Shown piece by piece: positions 716-45,344 of a stretch of 64,000 nucleotides of DNA. The notes beneath the pieces were generated by a model. It ran no database searches, was not told where the DNA came from, and saw nothing but the letters and a program-made list of their open reading frames with translations. Origin of the DNA: an uncultured cyanobacterium (GTDB lineage Bacteria; Cyanobacteriota; Cyanobacteriia; PCC-9006; JAAUQQ01); the NCBI GenBank assembly GCA_963718615.1, contig OY970368.1, positions 2,006,475 to 2,070,474 of the forward strand, given 5' to 3'. The translations under genes were made by a program, and so were the position numbers. Every line of letters starts with the position of its first letter. Within the stretch, counting starts at the first letter, position 1.

Positions 716-1341
716 GCTTCTGTCTCCTGGGCAAGGGCATTCACCGCTGCGGCTGCCATGGCGCTGCCGCCTCGTCGTCCTTGCAGCGTGAGGTAGGGAA
801 TTCCTCGGGCATCCGCCACGAGCTCGGCTTTGGATTCTGCTGCACCCACAAATCCCACGGGAAATCCGAGGATTAAAGCGGGCCGAGGTGCGCCTGCATC
901 CAGAAGTTCAAGCAAATGAAACAAAGCCGTTGGGGCATTGCCTATGGCGACCACTGAACCGGCGAGGTGCGATCGCCACAATTCCACCGCCGCTGCCGAT
1001 CGGGTAGTGTGCAGTTGCTCTGCCAGGGCTGGCACCTGCGGTTCGTTGAGCGTACAAATCACAGCATTTTGTGCAGGCAACCGGCTACGAATAATGCCGT
1101 GGGTGACCATTTGCACATCGCACAGGATCGAAGCCCCCTGGGCGATCGCCCCACGACCGGCAGTCACGGCATCCGCAGAGGCTCGCAAATCCTCAACAAT
1201 ATCGACCATTCCACAGGCATGGATCAGGCGGATTGCAATGGGGATGAGGTCAGGGGGCAGAGCGTTGAGATTGGCTTCGGCGCGGATGGTGGCGAAAGAT
1301 TGACGGTAGATATCGGGACCGTGGCGGAGGTAGGGGGGCAT
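712..1341 (-). CDS. cobH: precorrin-8X methylmutase (CobH/CbiC); ORF extends to 1437 but conserved protein likely starts at internal Met (MPPYLRHGPDIY)
   Basis: Family-typical length and motifs (IHACGMVDIVEDL..., GNAPTALFHLLELL). Confidence 0.8.
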   Translation of the reverse strand: MPPYLRHGPDIYRQSFATIRAEANLNALPPDLIPIAIRLIHACGMVDIVEDLRASADAVTAGRGAIAQGASILCDVQMVTHGIIRSRLPAQNAVICTLNEPQVPALAEQLHTTRSAAAVELWRSHLAGSVVAIGNAPTALFHLLELLDAGAPRPALILGFPVGFVGAAESKAELVADARGIPYLTLQGRRGGSAMAAAAVNALAQETEA

Positions 1342-1421
1342 GGGGGTAAAGGCCTGAGGATAGAGAATGAAGGAGAATGGATGGTTGTCAGTAGAGAATG
1401 GATGGTTGTTAGTGCGGTGAG

Positions 1422-2687
1422 TTGGGGATGAAGCCAATGGTGGATCGATGGTTGTCGATTGTAGGACTGGGGGAGGAGGGCTGGGCGGGGTTGAGTCCGG
1501 TAGGACGGTCTCTGGTGGAAGAGGCTGAGATTTTAGTGGGGGGCGACCGTCATTTTGCCATGGTGCCGGACCGGGAGAAAGGGTTGAAGCCTCAAGAACG
1601 CTGGGTTTGGCGATCGCCCATTGCCCAATCTGTGGAAGCCGTGCTGGCGATGCGGGGTCGGGCGGTTTGTGTTCTGGCCAGCGGAGATCCGATGTGTTAC
1701 GGCATTGGGGCGACCTTTCGGCGGTCTGTGAAGCTGGCAGAAATGACGATTTTACCTGCCCCTTCGGCCTTTAGTTGGGCCTGTGCCCGGTTGGGCTGGC
1801 CCCTGGCGGAGGTGGAAACCCTAAGCCTCTGTGGCCGTGATCCGGCTTTGTTGCATGCGGTTCTCTATCCAGGGGCAAGGATTTTGCTGTTGAGTAGCGA
1901 TCGCACCACACCCCTGACGGTGGCGGAAATCCTAACCCAACGGGGGTTTGGCCCTAGTCCGCTCACCGTCCTCGAACATCTCGGTGGCCCCCAAGAACGC
2001 ATCCGCACCCACCCCGCCAGCCATTGGCTCCAGCGCCACCCCAGCGACATCGCCGACCTCAATACCCTCGCCCTTGATTGCCAAGCCGCCCTTTCCCCGT
2101 CCGTCCTCCATCCTTCTCCCGGCTCCCCTGGCCTCCCCGATGCGGCCTATCACCACGATGGCCAACTCACCAAACGGGAAGTTCGTGCCCTGACCCTCTC
2201 GGCCCTTGCACCCTTGCCAGGGCAACTGCTTTGGGATGTGGGGGCGGGCTGCGGGTCGATTGCCATTGAATGGATGCGGAGCGATCGCCGTTGTCGGGCG
2301 ATCGCCATTGAACAAAATCCCCAACGGCAACAGTTCATGACCGAAAATGCCCAAGCCCTCGGGACGCCGGGGCTGCAAATCATTGCCGGAAAAGCGCCTG
2401 ATGCCCTGCAAAATCTGCCGCAGCCCGATGCCATTTTTATCGGGGGTGGTATCACCCAACCGGGTCTCCTGGAAACCTGCTGGATGGCCCTTCGACCCGG
2501 TGGACGACTGGTTGCGAATACCGTTACGATTCCAGGGGAACAGAAATTGTTTGAGGGACAACAGCGATGGGGCGGTGAACTCAGTCGTATTGGGATCCAG
2601 CGGGCTGAGGCGATCGGTCGTTTTCTCGGCTGGAAAGCTCTTGCGCCAGTGACCCAATGGGTTGTGATTAAGGCCGATTCGCCTTGA
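1422..2687 (+). CDS. cobL: precorrin-6Y C5,15-methyltransferase (decarboxylating), CbiE/CbiT fusion
   Basis: N-terminal tetrapyrrole methylase fold (VLASGDPMCYGIG), C-terminal SAM MTase (LWDVGAGCGSIAIEW). Confidence 0.85.
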   Translation: MGMKPMVDRWLSIVGLGEEGWAGLSPVGRSLVEEAEILVGGDRHFAMVPDREKGLKPQERWVWRSPIAQSVEAVLAMRGRAVCVLASGDPMCYGIGATFRRSVKLAEMTILPAPSAFSWACARLGWPLAEVETLSLCGRDPALLHAVLYPGARILLLSSDRTTPLTVAEILTQRGFGPSPLTVLEHLGGPQERIRTHPASHWLQRHPSDIADLNTLALDCQAALSPSVLHPSPGSPGLPDAAYHHDGQLTKREVRALTLSALAPLPGQLLWDVGAGCGSIAIEWMRSDRRCRAIAIEQNPQRQQFMTENAQALGTPGLQIIAGKAPDALQNLPQPDAIFIGGGITQPGLLETCWMALRPGGRLVANTVTIPGEQKLFEGQQRWGGELSRIGIQRAEAIGRFLGWKALAPVTQWVVIKADSP

Positions 2688-36132: not shown

Positions 36133-37494
36133 ATGAATGATCCTCAGGATGAATCCATTGGGTCTGGATCCCATCCAGAGTCAACGCCCGCCGCTCCCGA
36201 AGCCGAGTCTGCCTCTGCGCCTTGGTTTTCCCTCAACCGGGTGGGTAAACTCTCTCGCCAATTCTCCCGGCAATTTTCCGAACGGATTACCCAGCCCCTA
36301 GCGCGTACGCTGCCTTTGGAGCAGGTGACAGAGACCGTCATGGGCTGGTTTAGCGTCAGCGAAGAGCGAGTGGCGGAGATTTTAGTGGCGATTCGGGCAG
36401 AACTCCCCACCACGGAAGCCCTGCTGGTGGGCAAGCCCCAGGCTGGAAAAAGCTCGATCGTGCGGGCGATTACTGGGGTTTCTCCGGAAATTATTGGTCA
36501 AGGCTTTCGGCCCCACACTCAACATACTGAGCGGTATGCCTATCCTTCCGAAGACCTGCCTCTGCTGATCTTTACAGATACCGTCGGTTTGGGAGATGTC
36601 AAGCAGGCGACCCAGACTGTGGTGACGGAGCTTCAGCAGGAGTTGGCCCAGGAGTCGGGCGGAGCTCGGATCTTGATCCTGACGGTTAAGATTAACGATT
36701 TTGCGACGGATACGCTACGCCAAATTGCTGAGGACCTGCGGCGGCAGTTTCCCCAGGTGCCCTGCTTGCTCGCCGTGACCTGTTTACACGAGGCATACCC
36801 CAGTCCGAGCACCGAGCATCCGGACTATCCCCCCCAATTTGAGACGGTGCAGCGGGCCTTTGGGGCGATTCAGCAGGATTTTCAGGGGCTTTGCGATCGC
36901 GCCCTCCTGCTCGATTTCACCCTGGAGGAAGATGGCTATGAGCCGGTGTTTTATGGCCTAGAGGCCCTTCGAGATGCCTTGGCAGACCTGCTGCCGGAGG
37001 CGGAAGCCCAGACGATTCATCGGCTCATCGAAGAACAAAGCGATGCTCGCGAACAGCTCGGCAGTCTCTATCGGGACGTGGGCCGTCGTTATATGTCAAC
37101 GTTTGCGGTGATTGCGGCGACGCTGGCGGCGGTGCCGTTGCCCTTTGCGACGATGCCGGTGTTAACGGCGTTGCAGGTTTCGATGGTGGGACTCCTGGGT
37201 AAACTGTATGGTCAAACCCTGACGCCTTCGCAGGCTGGGGGGGTGGTGAGTGCGATCGCGGGTGGATTTGTTGCCCAGGCGATCGGGCGGGAGTTGGTTA
37301 AGTTTATCCCTGGGTTTGGCAGTGTCATCGCTGCGTCTTGGGCCGCTGCCTATACTTGGGCGTTGGGTGAAGGGGCCTGTGTTTATTTTGGCGATCTAAT
37401 GGGGGGTAAAAACCCGGATCCGGAGCGGATTCAACAGGTGATGGGCGAAGCGTTTACTGCGGCGAAGGAGCGGTTTAAGGAGAACCAGCGATAA
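36133..37494 (+). CDS. GTP-binding protein with C-terminal DUF697-type membrane domain (YcjF-like)
   Basis: P-loop GKPQAGKSS, G3 DTVGLGD; hydrophobic C-terminal domain. Confidence 0.7.
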   Translation: MNDPQDESIGSGSHPESTPAAPEAESASAPWFSLNRVGKLSRQFSRQFSERITQPLARTLPLEQVTETVMGWFSVSEERVAEILVAIRAELPTTEALLVGKPQAGKSSIVRAITGVSPEIIGQGFRPHTQHTERYAYPSEDLPLLIFTDTVGLGDVKQATQTVVTELQQELAQESGGARILILTVKINDFATDTLRQIAEDLRRQFPQVPCLLAVTCLHEAYPSPSTEHPDYPPQFETVQRAFGAIQQDFQGLCDRALLLDFTLEEDGYEPVFYGLEALRDALADLLPEAEAQTIHRLIEEQSDAREQLGSLYRDVGRRYMSTFAVIAATLAAVPLPFATMPVLTALQVSMVGLLGKLYGQTLTPSQAGGVVSAIAGGFVAQAIGRELVKFIPGFGSVIAASWAAAYTWALGEGACVYFGDLMGGKNPDPERIQQVMGEAFTAAKERFKENQR

Positions 37495-37632
37495 CTTTAG
37501 CAATGAGCTGATGCTTCAGGTGTACCAGGAAGGTTTACTGGTGTTGAGTTAGGGGAAGAGGAGAGGGGATGGCGATCGCTATAATAATGCCAGCGGAATC
37601 CAACCCATCAGGACCAATGTGGCTCCAACCCA

Positions 37633-38535
37633 GTGATGACCCACCTTGCAGAACGATACATTAATCCCCTCACGGACTTTGGGTTCAAGCGTTTGTTTGG
37701 CACAGAGCCCAATAAGGATTTCTTAATTGATTTCCTCAATGTTGTTTTGCCAGAGGAACATCGGGTTCAGGATTTGACGTATCGTAATAATGAAAATATT
37801 GGCAATACATTAATCGATCGCAAAGCCATTTTTGACATTTACTGTGAAAGCGAAAGCGGCGAGAAGTTTATCGTTGAGATTCAGAAGGCAAAACAAAACT
37901 ACTTCAAGGATCGGAGCATTTACTATTCGACTTTTCCCATCCAGGAGCAGGCGGAGAAAGGAGATTGGAATTATCGGCTTTCTGCTGTTTATACCGTTGG
38001 AATTCTAGATTTCATCTTTGATGACCATAAAACGGATCCAACGATTAAACATGTTGTTGAGCTGAAAAACCAAAGATGCGAGGTGTTTTATGACAAGCTG
38101 AAATTTATCTATATTGAGCTACCTAAATTCACCAAGACCCTTGACCAGTTGGAGAGTCACTACGAGAAATGGCTGTTCCTACTTCGACATCTTTACGAGT
38201 TTGAAGATAAGCCAGAGATATTGCAAGAGGGTGTTTTCAATCGTTTATTTGAGGTGGCAGAAATTGCCAACTTCTCTCCCCTAGAGCGACAAGCCTATGA
38301 AGACAGCTTAAAGTATTATCGTGATCTTCAGAATGTTGTAGACACCTCACGAGAAGAAGGTTGGGAGGAAGGTTGGGAAGAAGGTCGGGAAGAGGGCCGG
38401 GAAGAGGGTCGGGAAGAAGAGAGACAGGAGATTGCGCTAAACCTTCTGCGTGAGGGGGTTTCAGTGGAAATGGTAAGCCGCACGACAGGTCTTTCTGTTG
38501 AAAGGTTGGAGCGGCTACGGCAGCAGCTTGGGTGA
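37633..38535 (+). CDS. Rpn-family recombination-promoting nuclease / putative transposase (PD-(D/E)xK, YhgA-like) with C-terminal EEGWEEGREEGR repeats
   Basis: N-terminal INPLTDFGFKRLFG and IVEIQK motifs characteristic of family; low GC. Confidence 0.8.
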   Translation: MMTHLAERYINPLTDFGFKRLFGTEPNKDFLIDFLNVVLPEEHRVQDLTYRNNENIGNTLIDRKAIFDIYCESESGEKFIVEIQKAKQNYFKDRSIYYSTFPIQEQAEKGDWNYRLSAVYTVGILDFIFDDHKTDPTIKHVVELKNQRCEVFYDKLKFIYIELPKFTKTLDQLESHYEKWLFLLRHLYEFEDKPEILQEGVFNRLFEVAEIANFSPLERQAYEDSLKYYRDLQNVVDTSREEGWEEGWEEGREEGREEGREEERQEIALNLLREGVSVEMVSRTTGLSVERLERLRQQLG

Positions 38536-38918
38536 TGGGTGGAGTTTAAGGTGGTCTCTAAAACTGAGACGGTTGGTTTTCCGGTTTCGGAAAGGGCTTG
38601 AGGGTGCTTTATCTGGGGTTCATTTGTAAACGAAGTTTTCTTGATCGTAAAAAATATTACTTGTCTATTCTCCTGGTTGGTGGAAAAATGAGTCCCATTG
38701 AGTTTTTATTTTGAGCACTTGAGTCGGGGGTCGGGCGTTAGGCAATTTCGGTTTTATAGAGCGGCATATTAGCTGTGTTGGCTGTGGTTTCTTTCTATGG
38801 CTGGGTTCTCTGGGCAAGGGAATTTGTCTGGAACTGAGGGTGATGTGTTGCTCTATCAAGCTTAATATTGCGCTCTGACTTGAGCATCTTCCTGCGGTGA
38901 TTTGCGGGAGGTTTTCTA

Positions 38919-39110
38919 TGGTTGTCAGTGTGGCGAATACGTCTGCGGTGGCTGGTGCGTCGCGTTTAGAGCTGAATGCTTCGCGGCAGTTTGTGGCTTG
39001 GCTGCTGGAGCAGCGGCTTAGTTTGGCGTTTACGACGTATCAGGCGGGGAAGTAGTTGTTTTTGCTGGGGGTGAACCCGGAGGGCAATTTTTCAATGTTT
39101 GAGTGAATCC
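38919..39110 (+). pseudogene. GC-rich truncated 5' remnant (in-frame TAG) homologous to N-terminus of the downstream gene at 39182
   Basis: MVVSVANTSAVAGASRLELNASRQFVAWLLEQRLSLAFTTYQAGK*LFLLGVNPEG vs MHENH...SWLAQQKVSLAFTTYQSGRLFLLGLKDNG. Confidence 0.5.
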
Positions 39111-39181
39111 TTAAACATTGTCTTTTACGTACAAGAAAGTTCTAACTAATGACACTCGTGTTAACGACATAATTTATTCTT

Positions 39182-39571
39182 ATGCATGAGAATCACTCAT
39201 CTTTGCTAACTACTTCTCGACACTTTCCAAGTTGGCTCGCACAACAAAAAGTTAGCCTTGCGTTTACAACATATCAATCAGGTCGGCTCTTCTTGTTAGG
39301 TCTTAAAGATAATGGTGAACTGTCTGTCGTTGCCCGATCATTTGATCGAGCATCTGGAATGAGCACAACACCGAACAGTATTTACTTAGGAAGTAGAAAT
39401 CAGATTTGGGTTCTAAGGAATGTTTTGAAAGAAAGCGAATTTTATCAGGCTCACGATGCGCTATACGTCCCTTATAAATCCTACGCCGTCGGAGACGTAG
39501 ATATTCACGATATTGTTGTAACGTCAGTTCCGGTTAAGATTGGGCCGATGGAAGGGCGAAATCAAGGTTGA
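39182..39571 (+). pseudogene. 5' portion of conserved hypothetical gene (possibly TIGR03032-like family; unverified) interrupted by IS; native sequence ends at 39520
   Basis: ORF runs into IS left inverted repeat; reading frame resumes at 40496 after IS and TSD. Confidence 0.6.
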
Positions 39572-40487
39572 GAGCCGGTTTCTTGGGCTGATGGCAGTAG
39601 GCAATCAAGCCACATAGCAGGTTGACCGAGAAATTGATGGGACTGCGATGGCGCGAATGCTCAATCTGAGAGATGTTCTTGAGCTGGTCAATGATGGTCT
39701 CAATGATGGAGCGCTTACGGGCGAGCAGCTTATCGGTGAATCGCATGAGCTGGTTCTTCATGTTGCGTTTGGGTTTGGCGTAGAACTCAAGGCCACAAGT
39801 CTGAAGAAGCTCCAATGCGAGCTTCTTGGAGACATAGCCTCGGTCTGCGAATATCTTGCCAAAGAGCCCCTGAAGCAGCTCTTTGACTGGTTTGCGGTCA
39901 TCAGTATTGCCGGGAGTCAGGGTCATATTAAGGAGTTCTCCGCGGTCATTCACGACCAGATGAAGCTTGAATCCGAAGAACCAGTCCACTGACGTTTTGC
40001 CCCGAGCGGCGGAATCTTTGAAGACCTTGTGCTGCCGGATTCGACGGTTATGACAAACCTTGATGCAAGTCGCATCCATGAAACCAACGCCACTGCATTG
40101 ACCAAAGCAGCTTTTGAGGTAGGCACACAAAGGAAGGACCAGAGAGGGCAACCCGCTGATAAAACGCTGATAGCTCACCAACTTGGGAAAGGCTGAGCGC
40201 CAATGAACGGCCACATGTCTGGTGTAAAAGTCTTTGAAGTTTCGATAGCCTTGGAGATGAAAGGCAATGGCGATCGTCATTCTCTCGCTCAGGCTTAGCT
40301 TCCCGATGCGCTTTCGCATCTTCAGACCGCTGCCAAGTAACCGCTGATTCCATTTGGGTTCGAACGCCTGGCAGAAGTCATCGACGTCACAGAACAGCTC
40401 TTCTAAACTAATCATGGGTAGAGGGGGGTTGATTGCTTTGGTTAGTTTCAGCCTAATCTCCTCTGCCTTTCTTATCCAGAACTGACG
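39521..40487 (-). mobile_element. IS982-family insertion sequence (~967 bp) with ~25-bp imperfect terminal IRs and 7-bp target-site duplication TGTTGTA
   Basis: IR-L acgtcagttccggttaagattggg vs reverse complement of IR-R acgtcagttctggataagaaagg; flanks ttgttgta / tgttgta. Confidence 0.75.
39534..40415 (-). CDS. IS982-family DDE transposase (start at [15 protein letters not shown]; ORF track start 40499 lies outside IS)
   Basis: N-terminal LEELFCxVDDFC motif typical of IS982 transposases; about 294 aa. Confidence 0.8.
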
Positions 40488-40558
40488 TTGTTGTATCAAA
40501 AGCAGAAGAAAATGATAAGAAGCTGCAAGTTTTCTTTGTAAGTTCGCAATTTAGTTGT

Positions 40559-41254
40559 GTGTCAACATTAAGCGATCGATATAGCTTTCAGTTGTCTTGG
40601 CTGCCCCCTTTCATCTCTAAGTTGGTTCCAGAGGACCGATGTCATCTTAATGGTTTAGCATCGATCGAAGGAAATCTTCGATATTCAACTGCTTTAAGTG
40701 AGTCAGATATAGCAGACGGATGGCGAGATCATCGGCATGAAGGAGGATGCATCATAGACATTGAAGCAAATGAAACGATTGTGACAGGTCTTTCGATGCC
40801 GCATTCTCCCAGATGGTATCGAGATAAATTGTGGCTTCTTAACTCTGGAACAGGTGAGTTTGGACACATCGAAAATCTTGGAGATTCCTGTACTGGCCCT
40901 TTAGCTTTCAAGCCAATTGTATTTTGTCCAGGTTATTTGAGAGGTCTGGCTTTTCATGAAAATTATGCGGTGGTCGGTCTTTCCTTACCCAGAGAACTTA
41001 CTTTTAGAGGATTAAAGCTTGATGAGCAACTAACTCAACGCAAGGCAAAGCCGCGTTGTGGGTTAATGGTAATTGATTTAGATCAGGGCAATGTGGCCCA
41101 CTGGTTGAGATTAGAAGGAGAAATCAGTGAGCTGTATGATGTTCAAATCCTGCCAAGAATACGATGTCCTAGTGCGATAAGCTTGAACACTGAAATTTTA
41201 ATGGCCGATCACTTTAATGGTGATTTCATATGCTGGAAGGCAAGAAAGTGTTAA
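40559..41254 (+). pseudogene. 3' portion of the IS-disrupted gene (frame open from 40496)
   Basis: In-frame with 39182..39520 after removal of IS plus one TSD copy, giving ~366-aa reconstructed protein. Confidence 0.6.
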
Positions 41255-41306
41255 GAGCTTTACGTTGAGTCATCTATACCTAAGTTATGTAATGTAGAGG
41301 GAAATA

Positions 41307-42995
41307 ATGTCCATAAATTTTAGCGATGAACAAGTTATTTCTGATGTAGCTAGCAGAGTTTACTCAATATTCTCAGCAGATATTGACGATGACGGTGATC
41401 TCGATATAGTAGCCGCTATCAATGGGGAAAACACAGTTGCTTGGTATGAAAATGATGGAAATAGTAACTTTACTCAGCGAACCATTTCGGATACTACTAC
41501 AGGAGCGTTAGCTGTATTAGTGGCAGACATTGATAGTGATGGCAACCTAGACGTTGTAGCTAGCTCACGAAAGAATCAAATTGTTTGGTTTCAGCAAGAT
41601 AATAGCGGAAATTTTACTGAAAGGATTGTAACAAAGACTTTCAACAACACGAATAGTGTTTTTTCTCTTTCTTCTTCAGACATTGACAACGATGGTGATC
41701 TTGACATTATTTCAGCTTCAGCCTATTCGTATGCAGGTAATTTGACTTGGTATGAGAATGATGGCGCTGGAAACTTTACAGAACACACAATTTTTGCTCC
41801 TGAAACAAGGCCTTCTGACTTACAGCCTTGGCAAGTGTCTTCGATTGATATCGACTCCGATAATGATATCGACATACTAGCTGTATTCAAAGGACGGATG
41901 GGAGGAGCAAAGATTTCTTGGTATGAAAATGATGGTAATGCTAACTTCGAGGAACATATTATCGTTGAGAATCTTACTAATAACGGAGGACGATCTGAAT
42001 CAGCGTTTCTTGTTGACTTAGATGCCGATGGTGACATCGATTTCATTTCACAGTCTCTAACAGGTCTCGGTATTTCATGGTATGAGAATGATGGTGAAGA
42101 AAACTTCACCGAGAATTTAGTGGATGACAATCAGCTTTATTATGTCGAGCCAAAATCAATTGATGTTGTGGACTTTGATAGAGATGGAGACCTAGATATC
42201 CTAGTGTCATCTCAAGTGAATCCTGCCAGAACGCTTCTATTTGAAAATGATGGCAATAATAACTTTCAAAAGCATCTCGTAGCCATTAACGAAAAGGCTA
42301 TATTTTCTTCGTCTTTCTCCGATATCGATGGTGATGGCGACATTGATATTGTCTCAGCATCGCGTGATGACAATAAGATTGCTTTGCTGGTTAACCTTGA
42401 ATGCTTCCTCACCGGCACTCTCGTCACCACCACCCAAGGCCCACGCCCCGTCGAAACCCTCCAAATCGGCGACCTCATCCAAACCGCCGACGGCAAAACC
42501 CAACCGATCAAATGGATCGGCACCCAAACCTTCGACGCCGCCAAACACCCCGCCCACCCCTTCCGCACCTACCCCATCCGCATCCAAGCCGGAGCCCTCG
42601 GCCACAACCTCCCCAGCCGCCCCCTCTATGTCTCCCCCGACCACGCCCTCCTGATCGACGGCCTCCTGATCAACGCCGGAGCAATCACCAACGGCACCAC
42701 CATCACCCAGATCCCCATGGAGCAATTCACCTACTACCACATCGAACTCGAACACCACGCCCTCCTCCTCGCCGAAGGCACCCCCGCCGAAAGCTACCTG
42801 CCCCAAAACCAAGCCCGCGACAGCTTCGACAACGGCGCAGAATACGACCAGTTCTACCCCAACCACAACATCCTTTCGCTGTTGCCCATGCACTACCCCC
42901 GCGTTAGCAGCAAACGCCAACTGCCCCGCTTCGTCGCCAAACGGCTCCAGAAAATTTCAGAAATTCTCAGCAGCGACGGTATCCTTACCGCCTAG
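41307..42995 (+). CDS. FG-GAP (7-bladed beta-propeller) repeat protein with C-terminal Hint (Hedgehog/intein-like, Hint_2-type) domain
   Basis: Seven D-x-D-x-DGD-x-D...W[YF]ENDG repeats; Hint block from CFLTGTLVTT to HHALLLAEG; abrupt AT-rich to GC-rich switch at ~42404. Confidence 0.8.
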   Translation: MSINFSDEQVISDVASRVYSIFSADIDDDGDLDIVAAINGENTVAWYENDGNSNFTQRTISDTTTGALAVLVADIDSDGNLDVVASSRKNQIVWFQQDNSGNFTERIVTKTFNNTNSVFSLSSSDIDNDGDLDIISASAYSYAGNLTWYENDGAGNFTEHTIFAPETRPSDLQPWQVSSIDIDSDNDIDILAVFKGRMGGAKISWYENDGNANFEEHIIVENLTNNGGRSESAFLVDLDADGDIDFISQSLTGLGISWYENDGEENFTENLVDDNQLYYVEPKSIDVVDFDRDGDLDILVSSQVNPARTLLFENDGNNNFQKHLVAINEKAIFSSSFSDIDGDGDIDIVSASRDDNKIALLVNLECFLTGTLVTTTQGPRPVETLQIGDLIQTADGKTQPIKWIGTQTFDAAKHPAHPFRTYPIRIQAGALGHNLPSRPLYVSPDHALLIDGLLINAGAITNGTTITQIPMEQFTYYHIELEHHALLLAEGTPAESYLPQNQARDSFDNGAEYDQFYPNHNILSLLPMHYPRVSSKRQLPRFVAKRLQKISEILSSDGILTA

Positions 42996-43018
42996 AGAAG
43001 CACTAGAGAAGCATGAAT

Positions 43019-43588
43019 CTAACGTTGCACTTGTAGGCAAGCAAAAAGCTGCCCCACAGTCAAATCTACACCCATCGCAAAGTCAGGAACGGGTAACCGG
43101 TCATCGGCGGCACTGAAATGAATCGGTTGTTGATCTTTTGGATAAGTGGTCACTGATCGCTCAGCCGGATCGACGAGCCACCCCATCTTGCAGCCGTTGC
43201 GTAGGCAGTGAAGAATATTGTCGATAACCCTGGTGGTGCTTTGATTCGGGGAAAGAATCTCGATGGTCCAATCCGGAGCGATTGAGAACGTATTCGCGAT
43301 CTCCCCCTGGTCATCGGTTGGAATTCGCTCCTGACAAAAGATCGCCACATCCGGGACGATTGAGCGGCCCCCAAAAGTGCAGCGAAGCTCTGGAAACGCT
43401 TCAGCTGTTCCCTCATCTTCTAAAACGCGGTTAATTCGCTCAGTGACTTTGCGCTGAAGGCGGCTATGTTTTCCCTTGGGCATTGGCTTTTGGTCAATCT
43501 GCCCGTTGATATATTCGCAGCTCGGCTCAGTCTCAGGGAGTGCCAGGAATTCTTCGAGGGTGAGGGACTTTATCGGGGTTTGAACCAT
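43019..43588 (-). CDS. Uma2-family (DUF820) putative restriction-endonuclease-like protein
   Basis: Uma2-like sequence; family is highly expanded in cyanobacteria. Confidence 0.75.
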   Translation of the reverse strand: MVQTPIKSLTLEEFLALPETEPSCEYINGQIDQKPMPKGKHSRLQRKVTERINRVLEDEGTAEAFPELRCTFGGRSIVPDVAIFCQERIPTDDQGEIANTFSIAPDWTIEILSPNQSTTRVIDNILHCLRNGCKMGWLVDPAERSVTTYPKDQQPIHFSAADDRLPVPDFAMGVDLTVGQLFACLQVQR

Positions 43589-43669
43589 AGATTAGCGATC
43601 GTCGTCGTAGCTCTAGTGTACCGTAGGAAATGACTTGTCCGTAATGCTCTGTTAGGGGGAGATGAGGTC

Positions 43670-44326
43670 TTGCAACTAGACGGTGAAATGGCCTATGAGG
43701 GCTTGCGCGATCGCATCCTCCCCGGTGATGTCATTGCCTTTTCAGGTACAGGGTTTCCGTCAGAAACGGTGAAGCTGGCAACTCGATCTGTGGTTTCCCA
43801 CGTTGGGATTATTGTGCGGGTGGATCGGGCGGCGGAGGGCACCTTTCCGATCGTGATGGAAGCCAGCCCCATTGAAGGGTTTTCGGGGGTGGGGATACGG
43901 GATTTGGGCGATCGCATCCTCCATCATCCCGGCAATATTTGGTGGCTCCCTCTAGACCTCGAACAACGTCGTCGCCTGGATCAAGCCGCGTTGGTTAAAT
44001 TTTTGTGGGAGCAGGATGGCAAACCCTACGACACCGTCCAAGCCATCAACTCTGCCCTCGATTTTCGCTGCGAGGTTTCGGGGCTTGCCCAGCTCACAGC
44101 CAATGAAGAGAACTTTGATCAATTATTCTGCTCCGAGCTCGTGATCGGAGGGCTTAAAGCTGGGGGGCTGTTGGCAGGGGTAAATGCCTCCGAACTGACG
44201 CCAGCGGATCTCTGTCAGTTGGCGATCTATGCCCCTCAATATTACGGCTTAAAAATCATAGATACCCATTTAGAAATTGCATCCTATAACAGCGTCCCGA
44301 TCTCCCAGGCAGAACAATTTCACTAG
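43670..44326 (+). CDS. permuted papain-like (NlpC/P60 superfamily, YiiX/C92-like) putative amidase
   Basis: Conserved His (SHVGIIV) and Cys (LFCSELV) arrangement. Confidence 0.45.
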   Translation: MQLDGEMAYEGLRDRILPGDVIAFSGTGFPSETVKLATRSVVSHVGIIVRVDRAAEGTFPIVMEASPIEGFSGVGIRDLGDRILHHPGNIWWLPLDLEQRRRLDQAALVKFLWEQDGKPYDTVQAINSALDFRCEVSGLAQLTANEENFDQLFCSELVIGGLKAGGLLAGVNASELTPADLCQLAIYAPQYYGLKIIDTHLEIASYNSVPISQAEQFH

Positions 44327-44405
44327 ATTCTTGATAGCTCGATCTTTTCGCAACAAGAAGGGACATGGCATGCCATGTCCCTCAGACCCCTGAAGCATTC
44401 ACCGA

Positions 44406-45344
44406 TCAGCCTTCTACATTGATTTTGGTGACCAGCTCTAGCTTGACCGTTTCTGCCAGCTCGTTGGCCACTTGGCAAGTGCCCGCATTCGCATGGCCAC
44501 CGCCACCATAGGACAACATCATTTCACCGATATTGAGCTTTGAAGTGCGGTTGAGAATGGATTTGCCAACGGCAAAAACAGTGTTTTGCTGATTGAGTCC
44601 CCAAAGAATATGAGCCGAAATATTGCAGTTAGGGAAGAGGGCGTAGATCATAAAGCGATTGCCCGCATAGATTTTCTCTTCATAGCGCAGATCCAGGACG
44701 ACAAAATTGTCATACACCGTTGCGCAGCGCTCAATTTGTTCCTTAAATAGCTCCTGTTGGACAAAGTACAAATCGGTTCGTTCTTGAACATCAGGCAGTT
44801 CTAGAATCTCTTCGATGGACATGGATTTGCAGCAATCGATCAGCTCCATCATCAGCTGATAGTTGGAAATCCGAAATTCTTTAAAACGACCCAATCCCGT
44901 CCGAGCATCCATCAAGAAATTCAGCAACACCCACCCTTGGGGATTGAGAATTTCATCTAAGCTAAACTGAGCTGAATCCGCCTGATCGACCGCTGCCATC
45001 ATCTCTTGAGAGATATTAGGAAACGCCGCTGCTCCGCCGAAGTATTCATAAACGACTCGGGCTGCCGAGGGAGCATCGGGCTGAATAATATGGTGTTCTA
45101 TCTCCGCAGGATTCCGCAGGATTTCGCTGGCATGATGGTCAAAGGCGAGATAAACGCCAGGTACATAGGGGAGATTTGTCGTGATATCGCGATCGGTAAT
45201 CTCGACCTTGCCATCCTGCATATCCTTGGGATGGACAAATTTAATCTCGTCGATTAGCTCACGCTCTTTCAACAGCACCGCACAAACCAGTCCGTCGAAA
45301 TCGCTCCGGGTCACCAATCGATACTTGTCTCGGGTTAGCAGCAT
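44406..45344 (-). CDS. DHH-family phosphoesterase (NrnA-like)
   Basis: DFDGLVC and AFDHH motifs, C-terminal GGGH. Confidence 0.7.
   Translation of the reverse strand: MLLTRDKYRLVTRSDFDGLVCAVLLKERELIDEIKFVHPKDMQDGKVEITDRDITTNLPYVPGVYLAFDHHASEILRNPAEIEHHIIQPDAPSAARVVYEYFGGAAAFPNISQEMMAAVDQADSAQFSLDEILNPQGWVLLNFLMDARTGLGRFKEFRISNYQLMMELIDCCKSMSIEEILELPDVQERTDLYFVQQELFKEQIERCATVYDNFVVLDLRYEEKIYAGNRFMIYALFPNCNISAHILWGLNQQNTVFAVGKSILNRTSKLNIGEMMLSYGGGGHANAGTCQVANELAETVKLELVTKINVEG

Follow-up and report, generated by a model that had tools for sequence, protein, structure and literature searches.

Why should a single gene be written in two opposite codon usages, and why should the change between them fall on the first residue of one of its domains? 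The question is raised by a chimeric gene in a 64-kb stretch of DNA from an uncultured cyanobacterium (assembly GCA_963718615.1, contig OY970368.1). This stretch is called the window throughout, and coordinates count from its first letter; those of the features are collected in Table 1. The window is cyanobacterial by its petH gene with a CpcD domain, its ycf66 and its zwf-opcA pair, and has a GC content of 0.52. The first half of the gene (N half) codes for an FG-GAP propeller and the second for a Hint_2 cassette, which starts with a cysteine (Cys1). Pfam recognizes seven stretches of FG-GAP_3 (PF13517, E 1.4e-49) in the N half, and with these seven repeats it belongs to the FG-GAP/VCBS beta-propellers; at the DNA level, six copies of the repeat are clear. 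Hint_2 (PF13403) is matched at amino acids (aa) 366-500 with E 8.6e-45; the score of 153 bits is far above the cutoff of 28.4, and the match covers positions 2-146 of the 147 in the profile. We consider it probable that this is a mosaic gene, joined by recombination at Cys1. Such a joint accounts for the position of the switch; it does not account for the use of nearly one codon per amino acid on its right side.

The original prediction, made by reading the letters without database searches, was that composition switches abruptly at Cys1 within one open reading frame (ORF), from an AT-rich N half with A- and T-ending codons to a very GC-rich Hint part with C-ending codons. The switch is there. 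A single-change-point scan places the maximum-likelihood change in third-position C (C3) at nucleotide (nt) 42402, with a likelihood ratio of 162.5, and this is the first base of the Cys1 codon. The codon had been placed at 42404..42406; it actually lies 2 nt to the left, and the N half accordingly spans 41307..42401. Across the junction, third-position C rises from 0.19 to 0.73 (0.8-0.9 locally) and third-position T (T3) falls from 0.45 to 0.04, while G goes from 0.13 to 0.08 and A from 0.24 to 0.15. The N half is indeed AT-rich, with a GC content of about 0.39. When third-position GC (GC3) is calculated in 60-nt windows (20 codons), as had been proposed, it stays at 0.20-0.50 up to 42327 and at 0.75-0.95 from 42417 to 42807; the values between them, 0.55 at 42357 and 0.70 at 42387, belong to windows that straddle the junction. 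The change is a step without gradient.

This step is not a by-product of amino-acid content. Given the amino acids of the Hint part and the codon usage of the host, C3 is expected to be 0.31 +/- 0.03 and is observed to be 0.73, and at two-fold sites C/(C+T) goes from 0.33 in the N half to 0.95 in the Hint half. What switches is synonymous codon choice. The Hint part uses TTT/TTC 0/7, GAT/GAC 0/9, AAT/AAC 0/7 and CAT/CAC 0/9 times. Its four-fold sites hold 81% C, 6% A, 8% G and 5% T, and T-ending four-fold codons are nearly purged (GCT 0, CGT 0, GGT 1, GTT 1). Gln, Glu and Lys are written as CAA, GAA and AAA 23 times and by their G-ending partners 4 times; for Ser, AGC is used 7 times and TCC once. 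The part of the prediction concerning C-ending codons thus stands, and the description as GC-rich does not: the tract is C/A-rich (C 47%, A 25%, G 16%, T 12%; GC 0.63), with a GC skew of -0.5 and an AT skew of +0.3 on the sense strand. Its working rule is C where this is synonymous and otherwise A, with G and T avoided.

The bias is extreme and rare. The effective number of codons (ENC) is 23.5 for 42402..42866, against values of 48.7-51.6 in four host genes and the N half. When 42 ORFs across the window are compared, the highest C3 over 60 codons, 0.87, is in the Hint part, and the runner-up reaches 0.68. The same preference extends to amino-acid-changing positions: compared with 32 cyanobacterial cassettes, C at the first and second codon positions is the highest (z about +2.7), G and T at the first position are the lowest (z -3.7 and -3.2), and the content of Pro, His, Gln and Thr together is the highest (z +3.6). 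Lineage-specific changes at positions 1 and 2 give a net gain of 12 C and a net loss of 9 G, and the changes in the cassette comprise 8 G to C and 4 G to A. Because of this composition, little RNA structure is predicted for the tract (folding energy -84 kcal/mol, against -135 +/- 8 kcal/mol for synonymous recodings with host usage).

Composition also explains the long antisense and alternative-frame ORFs to which the prediction had drawn attention. Both exist, and all six frames are open because every stop codon and its reverse complement need a T on the + strand, where T makes up 12%. One could argue that such open frames betray an overlapping gene as the cause of the bias, or that the whole picture is an artefact of a chimeric assembly at 42402. 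Neither deserves much credit, and we regard the pair as very improbable. The two shadow ORFs (42354..42920 and 42401..42907) are of low complexity and match no Pfam family, and an overlapping gene is thereby rejected as the cause. As for a chimeric assembly, the junction is in frame and restores the conserved E-C-F-L motif of the family, an identical 562-aa product is encoded with the same neighbours on a 13.6-kb Logan contig, and analogous tracts are found in independent metagenome-assembled genomes (MAGs).

Both halves of the gene depart from host codon usage, in opposite directions. Four-fold sites of the FG-GAP module (C.13, T.41, A.34, G.12) resemble those of the upstream DUF4915 gene (40559..41254; C.12, T.36, A.35, G.18), and the mean over 32 host genes is about C.37, T.18, A.13 and G.30, with C ranging from.27 to.52. 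Since the N half and DUF4915 share one atypical usage, the foreign island ends at Cys1. With GC 0.36-0.46 against 0.52 in the host, 39106..42401 is a contiguous block of several genes with a distinct composition, that is, a genomic island. As to signs of mobility, there is no tRNA gene within 6 kb, no integrase and no pair of flanking direct repeats; there are only a PDDEXK_2 gene next to the island and the internal insertion sequence (IS). Where this IS is inserted into the foreign-type DUF4915 gene, a contig of a Logan assembly is broken.

The relatives of the two halves are discordant as well. For the N half, the best 119 matches are FG-GAP/VCBS proteins with only 29-41% identity; every organism named for them lies outside the cyanobacteria (Bacteroidota, Gemmatimonadota, Planctomycetota, Chloroflexota and others), sorting domains of the type IX secretion system occur in many, and none of the 119 has Hint_2. 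The best relatives of the Hint half are cyanobacterial (55-77% identical), followed by alphaproteobacterial ones with at most 54%. In cyanobacteria these are C-terminal cassettes of about 197 aa standing behind unrelated N-modules, such as LTD, beta-helix/Chlam_PMP repeats, other FG-GAP types and unknown sequences. Another Hint_2 protein, P0026, is 55% identical to the window cassette. The family alignment begins at the residues "EC", and conservation extends to the C-terminus.

A GC-rich donor such as an alphaproteobacterium could be proposed as the source of a tract with GC 0.63, as Hint_2 abounds in Alphaproteobacteria and also on their plasmids, among which 216 records match. We give this explanation hardly any chance. 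Besides the more distant relationship, third-position G is 0.08 in the window cassette and 0.28-0.38 in alphaproteobacterial cassettes, and third-position A is 0.03-0.13 in the latter, while the window cassette prefers A-ending codons for Gln, Glu and Lys. This pattern effectively refutes a GC-rich donor of this kind.

Cassettes shared between different N-modules, which the original prediction proposed to look for at more than 90% nucleotide identity, are observed in other genomes, although not for this cassette. The locus L110 (125..2346) contains two adjacent Hint_2 genes whose cassettes are 84% identical in nucleotides, with a patch of 97-98% near the 3' end, and whose N-modules are unrelated; this suggests gene conversion between the neighbouring cassettes. 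L080 (1..2441) contains two tandem Hint_2 genes with different N-modules and cassettes 80% identical in nucleotides. For the cassette studied here, blastn and tblastn revealed no copy more than 90% identical in the window, and neither a donor nor a near-identical cassette was found in 5.8 billion proteins, a one-genome-per-species set, JGI metagenomes, plasmids (both as protein and as DNA) or phages. The best matches are 77% identical in amino acids over 75% of the query and 69% over nearly its full length, and there is no match at the DNA level.

The model we favour can be described as follows. The Hint_2 cassette, from Cys1 to the stop codon, would be a portable and, by analogy, self-cleaving module able to stand behind many unrelated passengers. 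Here it would have been joined to an FG-GAP propeller which came together with the upstream DUF4915 gene on a low-GC foreign segment of about 3.3 kb. This segment is probably a recent arrival, because its composition is not shifted towards that of the host, and the IS would have been inserted later. The cassette itself would belong to those few cyanobacterial Hint_2 alleles in which the sense strand has been driven to C, then to A, and away from G and T. If the composition moves with the cassette DNA, then the cassette boundary is the composition boundary.

That such alleles exist, and are a minority, is seen when codons are compared among about 36 cyanobacterial cassettes for which DNA is available. 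About 30 of the 36 have ordinary codons, and C-richness as a property of the whole family is thus rejected. L001, from a Synechococcales MAG, has C3 0.65-0.85 and T3 0.05 with a change at Hint codon 46-50 (likelihood ratio 60-81); its N-module and first 45 or so Hint codons are low in GC relative to its own host. L016, from a Leptolyngbyaceae MAG that has four ordinary cassettes besides, has C3 0.55 and T3 0.10, with the change in T3 at Hint codon 2. L081 and L112 are partial or moderate cases. The window-like C-rich cassettes are 64-70% identical to each other in DNA, and the window, L001, L016 and L081 share position-specific codons in modest excess of what their codon usage predicts (z 2.7-3.6). 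Recombination between C-rich and ordinary alleles could then fall at Cys1, as in the window gene and L016, or inside the cassette, as in L001. Since the tracts start at different Hint codons, the breakpoints vary, as recombination predicts. Fusions of Hint cassettes to two different FG-GAP subtypes (42385..42404 in the window; L110 and L111) have the cassette joined at the same point of the repeat, immediately behind the strand which in ordinary repeats leads into the N-D-G turn: ..IALLVN-LE-CFL in the window and ..VSVLI-E-CFL in L110 and L111.

There are several points that weigh against our model. Firstly, no donor or near-identical cassette is at hand, and the recombination event is deduced from the pattern in the sequence. 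Secondly, the cassette may have been resident and received an incoming N-module, or the whole chimera may have arrived together. Thirdly, the C-rich alleles form no single clade by protein identity: the closest relative of the window cassette (L080, 69-77%) has ordinary codons, and the C-rich cassette of L016 is closer to its ordinary genome-mates. The bias must therefore have been lost repeatedly or gained repeatedly. Furthermore, the z-scores for shared codons could be inflated by positional heterogeneity that the sequences have in common. Finally, a simple lineage of alleles does not predict the mirror-image bias described below. Of the proposal that the switch marks a recombination joint, we thus retain the module junction, for which the usage shared with DUF4915, the discordant relatives, the "EC" boundary, the varying breakpoints and the L110 pair all speak; a donor copy was not found in the collections searched.

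Table 1. Features of the chimeric gene and the adjacent island (coordinates within the 64-kb window)
Feature	Coordinates	Strand	Description
Keto-rich tract	38351..39105	+	G+T 0.62-0.69, the strongest of the window; extends over the end of a gene, non-coding DNA and the remnant of DUF4915
Remnant of a second DUF4915 gene, host-like GC	38921..39105	+	61 codons from the 5' end, among them an in-frame TAG; adjoins the island on its left side
Low-GC island	39106..42401		About 3.3 kb; DUF4915 gene (split by IS) and FG-GAP module; shared atypical codon usage; right edge at Cys1
DUF4915 (TIGR03032-type), N-terminal part	39182..39571	+	PF16261 positions 2-106, E 1.4e-29; interrupted by IS
IS element	39520..40489	-	DDE transposase ORF 39534..40499 (DDE_Tnp_1_3, 1.2e-67); 20-nt terminal inverted repeats 39520-39539 / 40470-40489
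DUF4915, C-terminal part	40559..41254	+	PF16261 positions 120-316, E 9.2e-86
Chimeric gene	41307..42995	+	562 aa; FG-GAP module (propeller of seven blades) continued in the same frame by a C-terminal Hint_2 cassette; from ORF list and Pfam
FG-GAP module	41307..42401	+	Foreign low-GC codon usage; GC about 0.39, T3 0.45
Junction	42390..42405	+	Support interval of 2 log-likelihood units (five codons); Cys1 codon TGC at 42402..42404; peptide ...LLVNLE/CFLTGT... (slash marks the joint)
Hint_2 cassette	42402..42995	+	197 aa: HINT fold (residues 1 to about 130) and conserved C-terminal extension with final helix (residues 176-196)
Core C/A-rich, G/T-poor tract	42402..42870	+	C3 0.78; ENC 23.5; third-position G+T down to 0.03
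Cassette tail with weaker bias	42871..42995	+	C3 about 0.52 over the last 40 or so codons
Antisense shadow ORF	42354..42920	-	188 aa, rich in Gly, Val, Glu, Asp and Ala; from ORF list
Alternative-frame shadow ORF	42401..42907	+	168 aa, rich in Pro, Arg and His; from ORF list

The second part of the question, what has driven the cassette to almost one codon per amino acid, is more difficult. One answer would be translational selection: the cassette would come from a very highly expressed gene, or still form part of one, with codons tuned to tRNAs with G34 (for NNC codons) and U34 (for CAA, GAA and AAA), and the new N-module would not yet be adapted. The bias is specific for codon phase, the commonest four-fold codons of the host are already CCC, ACC, GCC and GGC, and CAA, GAA and AAA are at least as common there as their G-ending partners. 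In L081, moreover, the entire short gene including its N-module has C3 of about 0.5, against 0.22 in the neighbouring gene. Still, we find this explanation unlikely. Bacterial genes with high expression, those of cyanobacteria included, usually prefer T-ending four-fold codons, and exactly these have been purged here. The sole plausibly well-expressed host gene in the window, petH, does not follow the trend (C/(C+T) 0.43, four-fold T 0.28). The ENC is near its theoretical minimum of 20, amino-acid-changing positions are shifted as well, and all parts of one mRNA are translated equally. Finally, a remnant of DUF4915 located nearby has the opposite extreme bias.

This remnant, annotated as a 45-aa ORF (P0241), belongs to a second DUF4915 gene and lies at the opposite end of the island. 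At third positions it has G 37, T 19, C 3 and A 2 (92% G/T), the reverse of the Hint tract, which is the strongest C+A-rich tract of the window. When the fraction of G+T at third positions of the sense strand (keto3) is taken over 3156 windows of 40 codons in 46 ORFs, its mean is 0.53 (standard deviation 0.11); the maximum of 0.97 is in the DUF4915 remnant, the minimum of 0.03 is in the Hint part, and the values closest to these are 0.85 and 0.20. Towards the island both tracts have a sharp limit, and outward they fade over about 600-800 nt; on each side it is the strand whose 3' end faces the island that is G/T-rich, a polarity that recombination intermediates, resected or re-synthesised, would be expected to leave. 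A search with the DUF4915 remnant for an intact resident locus gave only short fragments, 52-84% identical, and the remnant itself. The pairing of these two mirror-image extremes was spotted post hoc.

If the pairing is real, the bias might be linked to the junction itself. The locus would then be a site of recurrent replacement with the 5' end of DUF4915 and the Hint cassette as anchors, which would again and again become 3' single-stranded tails or be synthesised anew. On each side, the strand whose 3' end faces the junction would lose C and A and gain G and T, and purifying selection would preserve the protein, so that the bias saturates synonymous sites only. We rate such strand-asymmetric mutation no higher than translational selection. 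It would explain why the two most extreme asymmetries among all windows are opposite in sign and sit on two edges of the same island, and why both have a sharp inner end and a fading outer one. It would also cover the non-coding DNA in the left tract (G+T 0.67), the in-frame TAG of the remnant, which fits the direction of a CAG to TAG change, and the tract of L001, which begins at the junction and not at Cys1. Selection at the level of tRNA, too, hardly accounts for two genes of the same strand having opposite biases.

There are objections as well. A single event is insufficient: about 100 directional synonymous changes need long action, yet the island looks recent. Deamination yields transitions only, while C far exceeds A at four-fold sites and G to C changes outnumber G to A. 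A transition-only process, be it deamination or reverse-transcriptase wobble, is therefore rejected as sufficient, as it would leave a mixture of C and A at these sites. The mirror tract was looked for in L001 and L016 and is absent from both. The decay of C3 at similar cassette coordinates in L001 and the window also fits inheritance, and the post hoc nature of the pairing applies here as well. A more far-reaching version, which we hold to be slightly less probable still, is that the interval between DUF4915 and Hint is a hot spot where incoming DNA repeatedly replaces the passenger, and that both anchors bear a cumulative and polar footprint of this recombination, with the 3'-tail strand rich in G and T and the Hint sense strand consequently rich in C and A. 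Two drivers could be imagined, namely recurrent damage and repair of single strands under purifying selection, or selection for the G/T-rich, structure-free tails preferred by RecA. If this were true, recombination hot spots of bacteria could be read off from extreme codon bias on one strand.

Two other G/T-rich stretches were noticed in the window. A tract of about 400 nt at 1151..1560 is G/T-rich on the + strand (keto content 0.64-0.68, GC skew up to +0.6) and spans the divergent starts of a cobH-like gene on the - strand, whose first 60 or so codons have C3 of 0.6-0.7, and a cobL-like gene on the + strand; its strand asymmetry is independent of gene orientation. The second is a patch at 37051..37250 with keto3 of 0.85, near the 3' end of a GTPase/DUF697 gene (36133..37494) and just upstream of the low-GC PDDEXK_2 (Rpn-type) gene. 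The PDDEXK_2 nuclease-family protein has, near its C-terminus, five to six tandem 12-nt units (38353..38424) coding for EEGW/EEGR repeats. Two further MAGs of cyanobacteria also have a DUF4915 homologue no more than about 3 kb from a Hint_2 gene (L019, 136..753; L007, 6477..6557), the one upstream of the L019 Hint_2 gene being 55% identical; the linkage of DUF4915 and Hint_2 may be functional.

Some further drivers were considered. Avoidance of restriction sites is rejected as the cause of the bias: six-bp palindromes number 2 in the tract and 7.5 +/- 2.5 in recodings with host usage, which is a mere effect of composition. As a separate observation, GCCGGC occurs once in the 64 kb against 27.5 +/- 5.4 expected from shuffles, and both Ala-Gly dipeptides of the tract (42593-42601 and 42675-42683) are written GCC GGA, which spares this site; five aligned cassettes avoid the site there as well. 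This suggests that avoidance of GCCGGC shapes even the C-rich tract. Rfam matched nothing across 37000-44500, and neither a repeat of the tract nor a complementary copy, such as the template of a diversity-generating retroelement, was found in the window. Taken together, the observations point to a pressure on the nucleotide content of one strand and not on tRNA choice. This pressure may be mutational or selective.

Mosaic genes with a composition break at a module boundary are already known, and the window gene is a clean further example, resolved to five codons at the catalytic Cys. Unusual are the near one-codon-per-amino-acid usage, the enrichment of C and A on one strand that reaches as far as amino-acid choice, its recurrence in a few related cyanobacterial cassettes and its mirror image on the other edge of the island. 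If a recombination-linked or strand-specific process is responsible, then sites of cassette exchange would be recognisable from sequence alone, and local codon bias would have a newly discovered source. If it is selection on the RNA or a DNA strand, then the uncharacterised Hint_2 surface proteins would be under an unrecognised constraint.

What the cassette does can be judged from its predicted structure. An AlphaFold2 model built on the family alignment (predicted local distance difference test 90.5, predicted template modelling score 0.87) has the horseshoe-shaped beta fold of HINT domains. With probability 1.00, Foldseek relates it to inteins, to the bacterial intein-like (BIL) domain of C. 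thermocellum (2lwy), to Tetrahymena BIL2 and to the Hedgehog C-terminal domain (1at0); no relative with a solved structure was found by sequence. In 28 sequences, C1, S78 and D80 are conserved in at least 90% and H81 is invariant (block S78-P-D80-H81), so the cassette has both the N-terminal nucleophile and the block-B His of the Hint superfamily. It is not a canonical intein: it has no conserved terminal Asn, +1 nucleophile or endonuclease domain, it reaches the stop codon, and the N-modules before it are unrelated. Nor is it a polymorphic toxin system, as the part behind Hint is only about 65 aa long and conserved (R167, P175 and L182 are invariant or nearly so), and no toxin/immunity pair is present. 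The next gene is a convergent one of the Uma2 nuclease family. It is separated from the Hint gene by 23 nt (42995..43019) with no terminator-like site between; the sole terminator-like hairpin within the cassette is on the - strand (42521..42503).

By analogy, Cys1 and the S-x-D-H block could carry out an N-S acyl shift, and resolution of the thioester would release the propeller. As there is no C-terminal Asn or downstream nucleophile, splicing is not expected. We infer that N-terminal autocleavage frees the propeller, as in B-type BILs (PMC5874633) and Hedgehog. That the terminal helix (residues 176-196) plays a role in export can only be guessed.

Among known systems, the nearest are the B-type BIL domains and Hint_2 (Amitai et al. 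2003; Dassa et al. 2004; both after the summary in PMC5874633). Like them, the cassette has the HINT fold, an N-terminal Cys, a block-B His and no homing endonuclease, is expected to cleave itself rather than to splice, and is placed in a variable region of a probably secreted protein. Unlike them, the window domain and its conserved extension of about 65 residues form the C-terminus of the protein, with no C-extein or toxin behind. In the literature searched, there is no report of unusual nucleotide composition in BILs. The C-terminal autoprocessing domain of Hedgehog (Hog/HhC) is likewise a C-terminal Hint module of similar structure whose first Cys attacks the preceding peptide bond and so sets free an N-terminal signalling or passenger domain, but sequence identity is about 14% and no sterol-recognition region is evident in the window cassette.

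At the DNA level, two other comparisons can be made, the first of which is no more than a lead. Strand-coordinated mutation clusters at resected breaks (of the kataegis type) are sparse, arise in a single event and are unfiltered by selection. The asymmetry in the window is similar in being a mirror image across a rearrangement junction, with C and A depleted on the strand whose 3' end faces that junction; it differs in its saturated synonymous sites, its intact protein, the prominence of G to C transversions and a mirror limited to one locus. In composite polymorphic-toxin genes (Rhs core and tip, CdiA-CT, MafB), GC content changes abruptly where a conserved peptide motif is encoded. The window gene shares with them a sharp intragenic break at a short motif bounding an exchangeable module, and its family shares the presence of several cassettes per genome, sometimes in tandem (L080, L110). 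Here, however, the conserved part is C-terminal and the variable passenger N-terminal, there is no toxin/immunity pair, and the break is an enrichment of C and A on one strand instead of a simple shift in GC.

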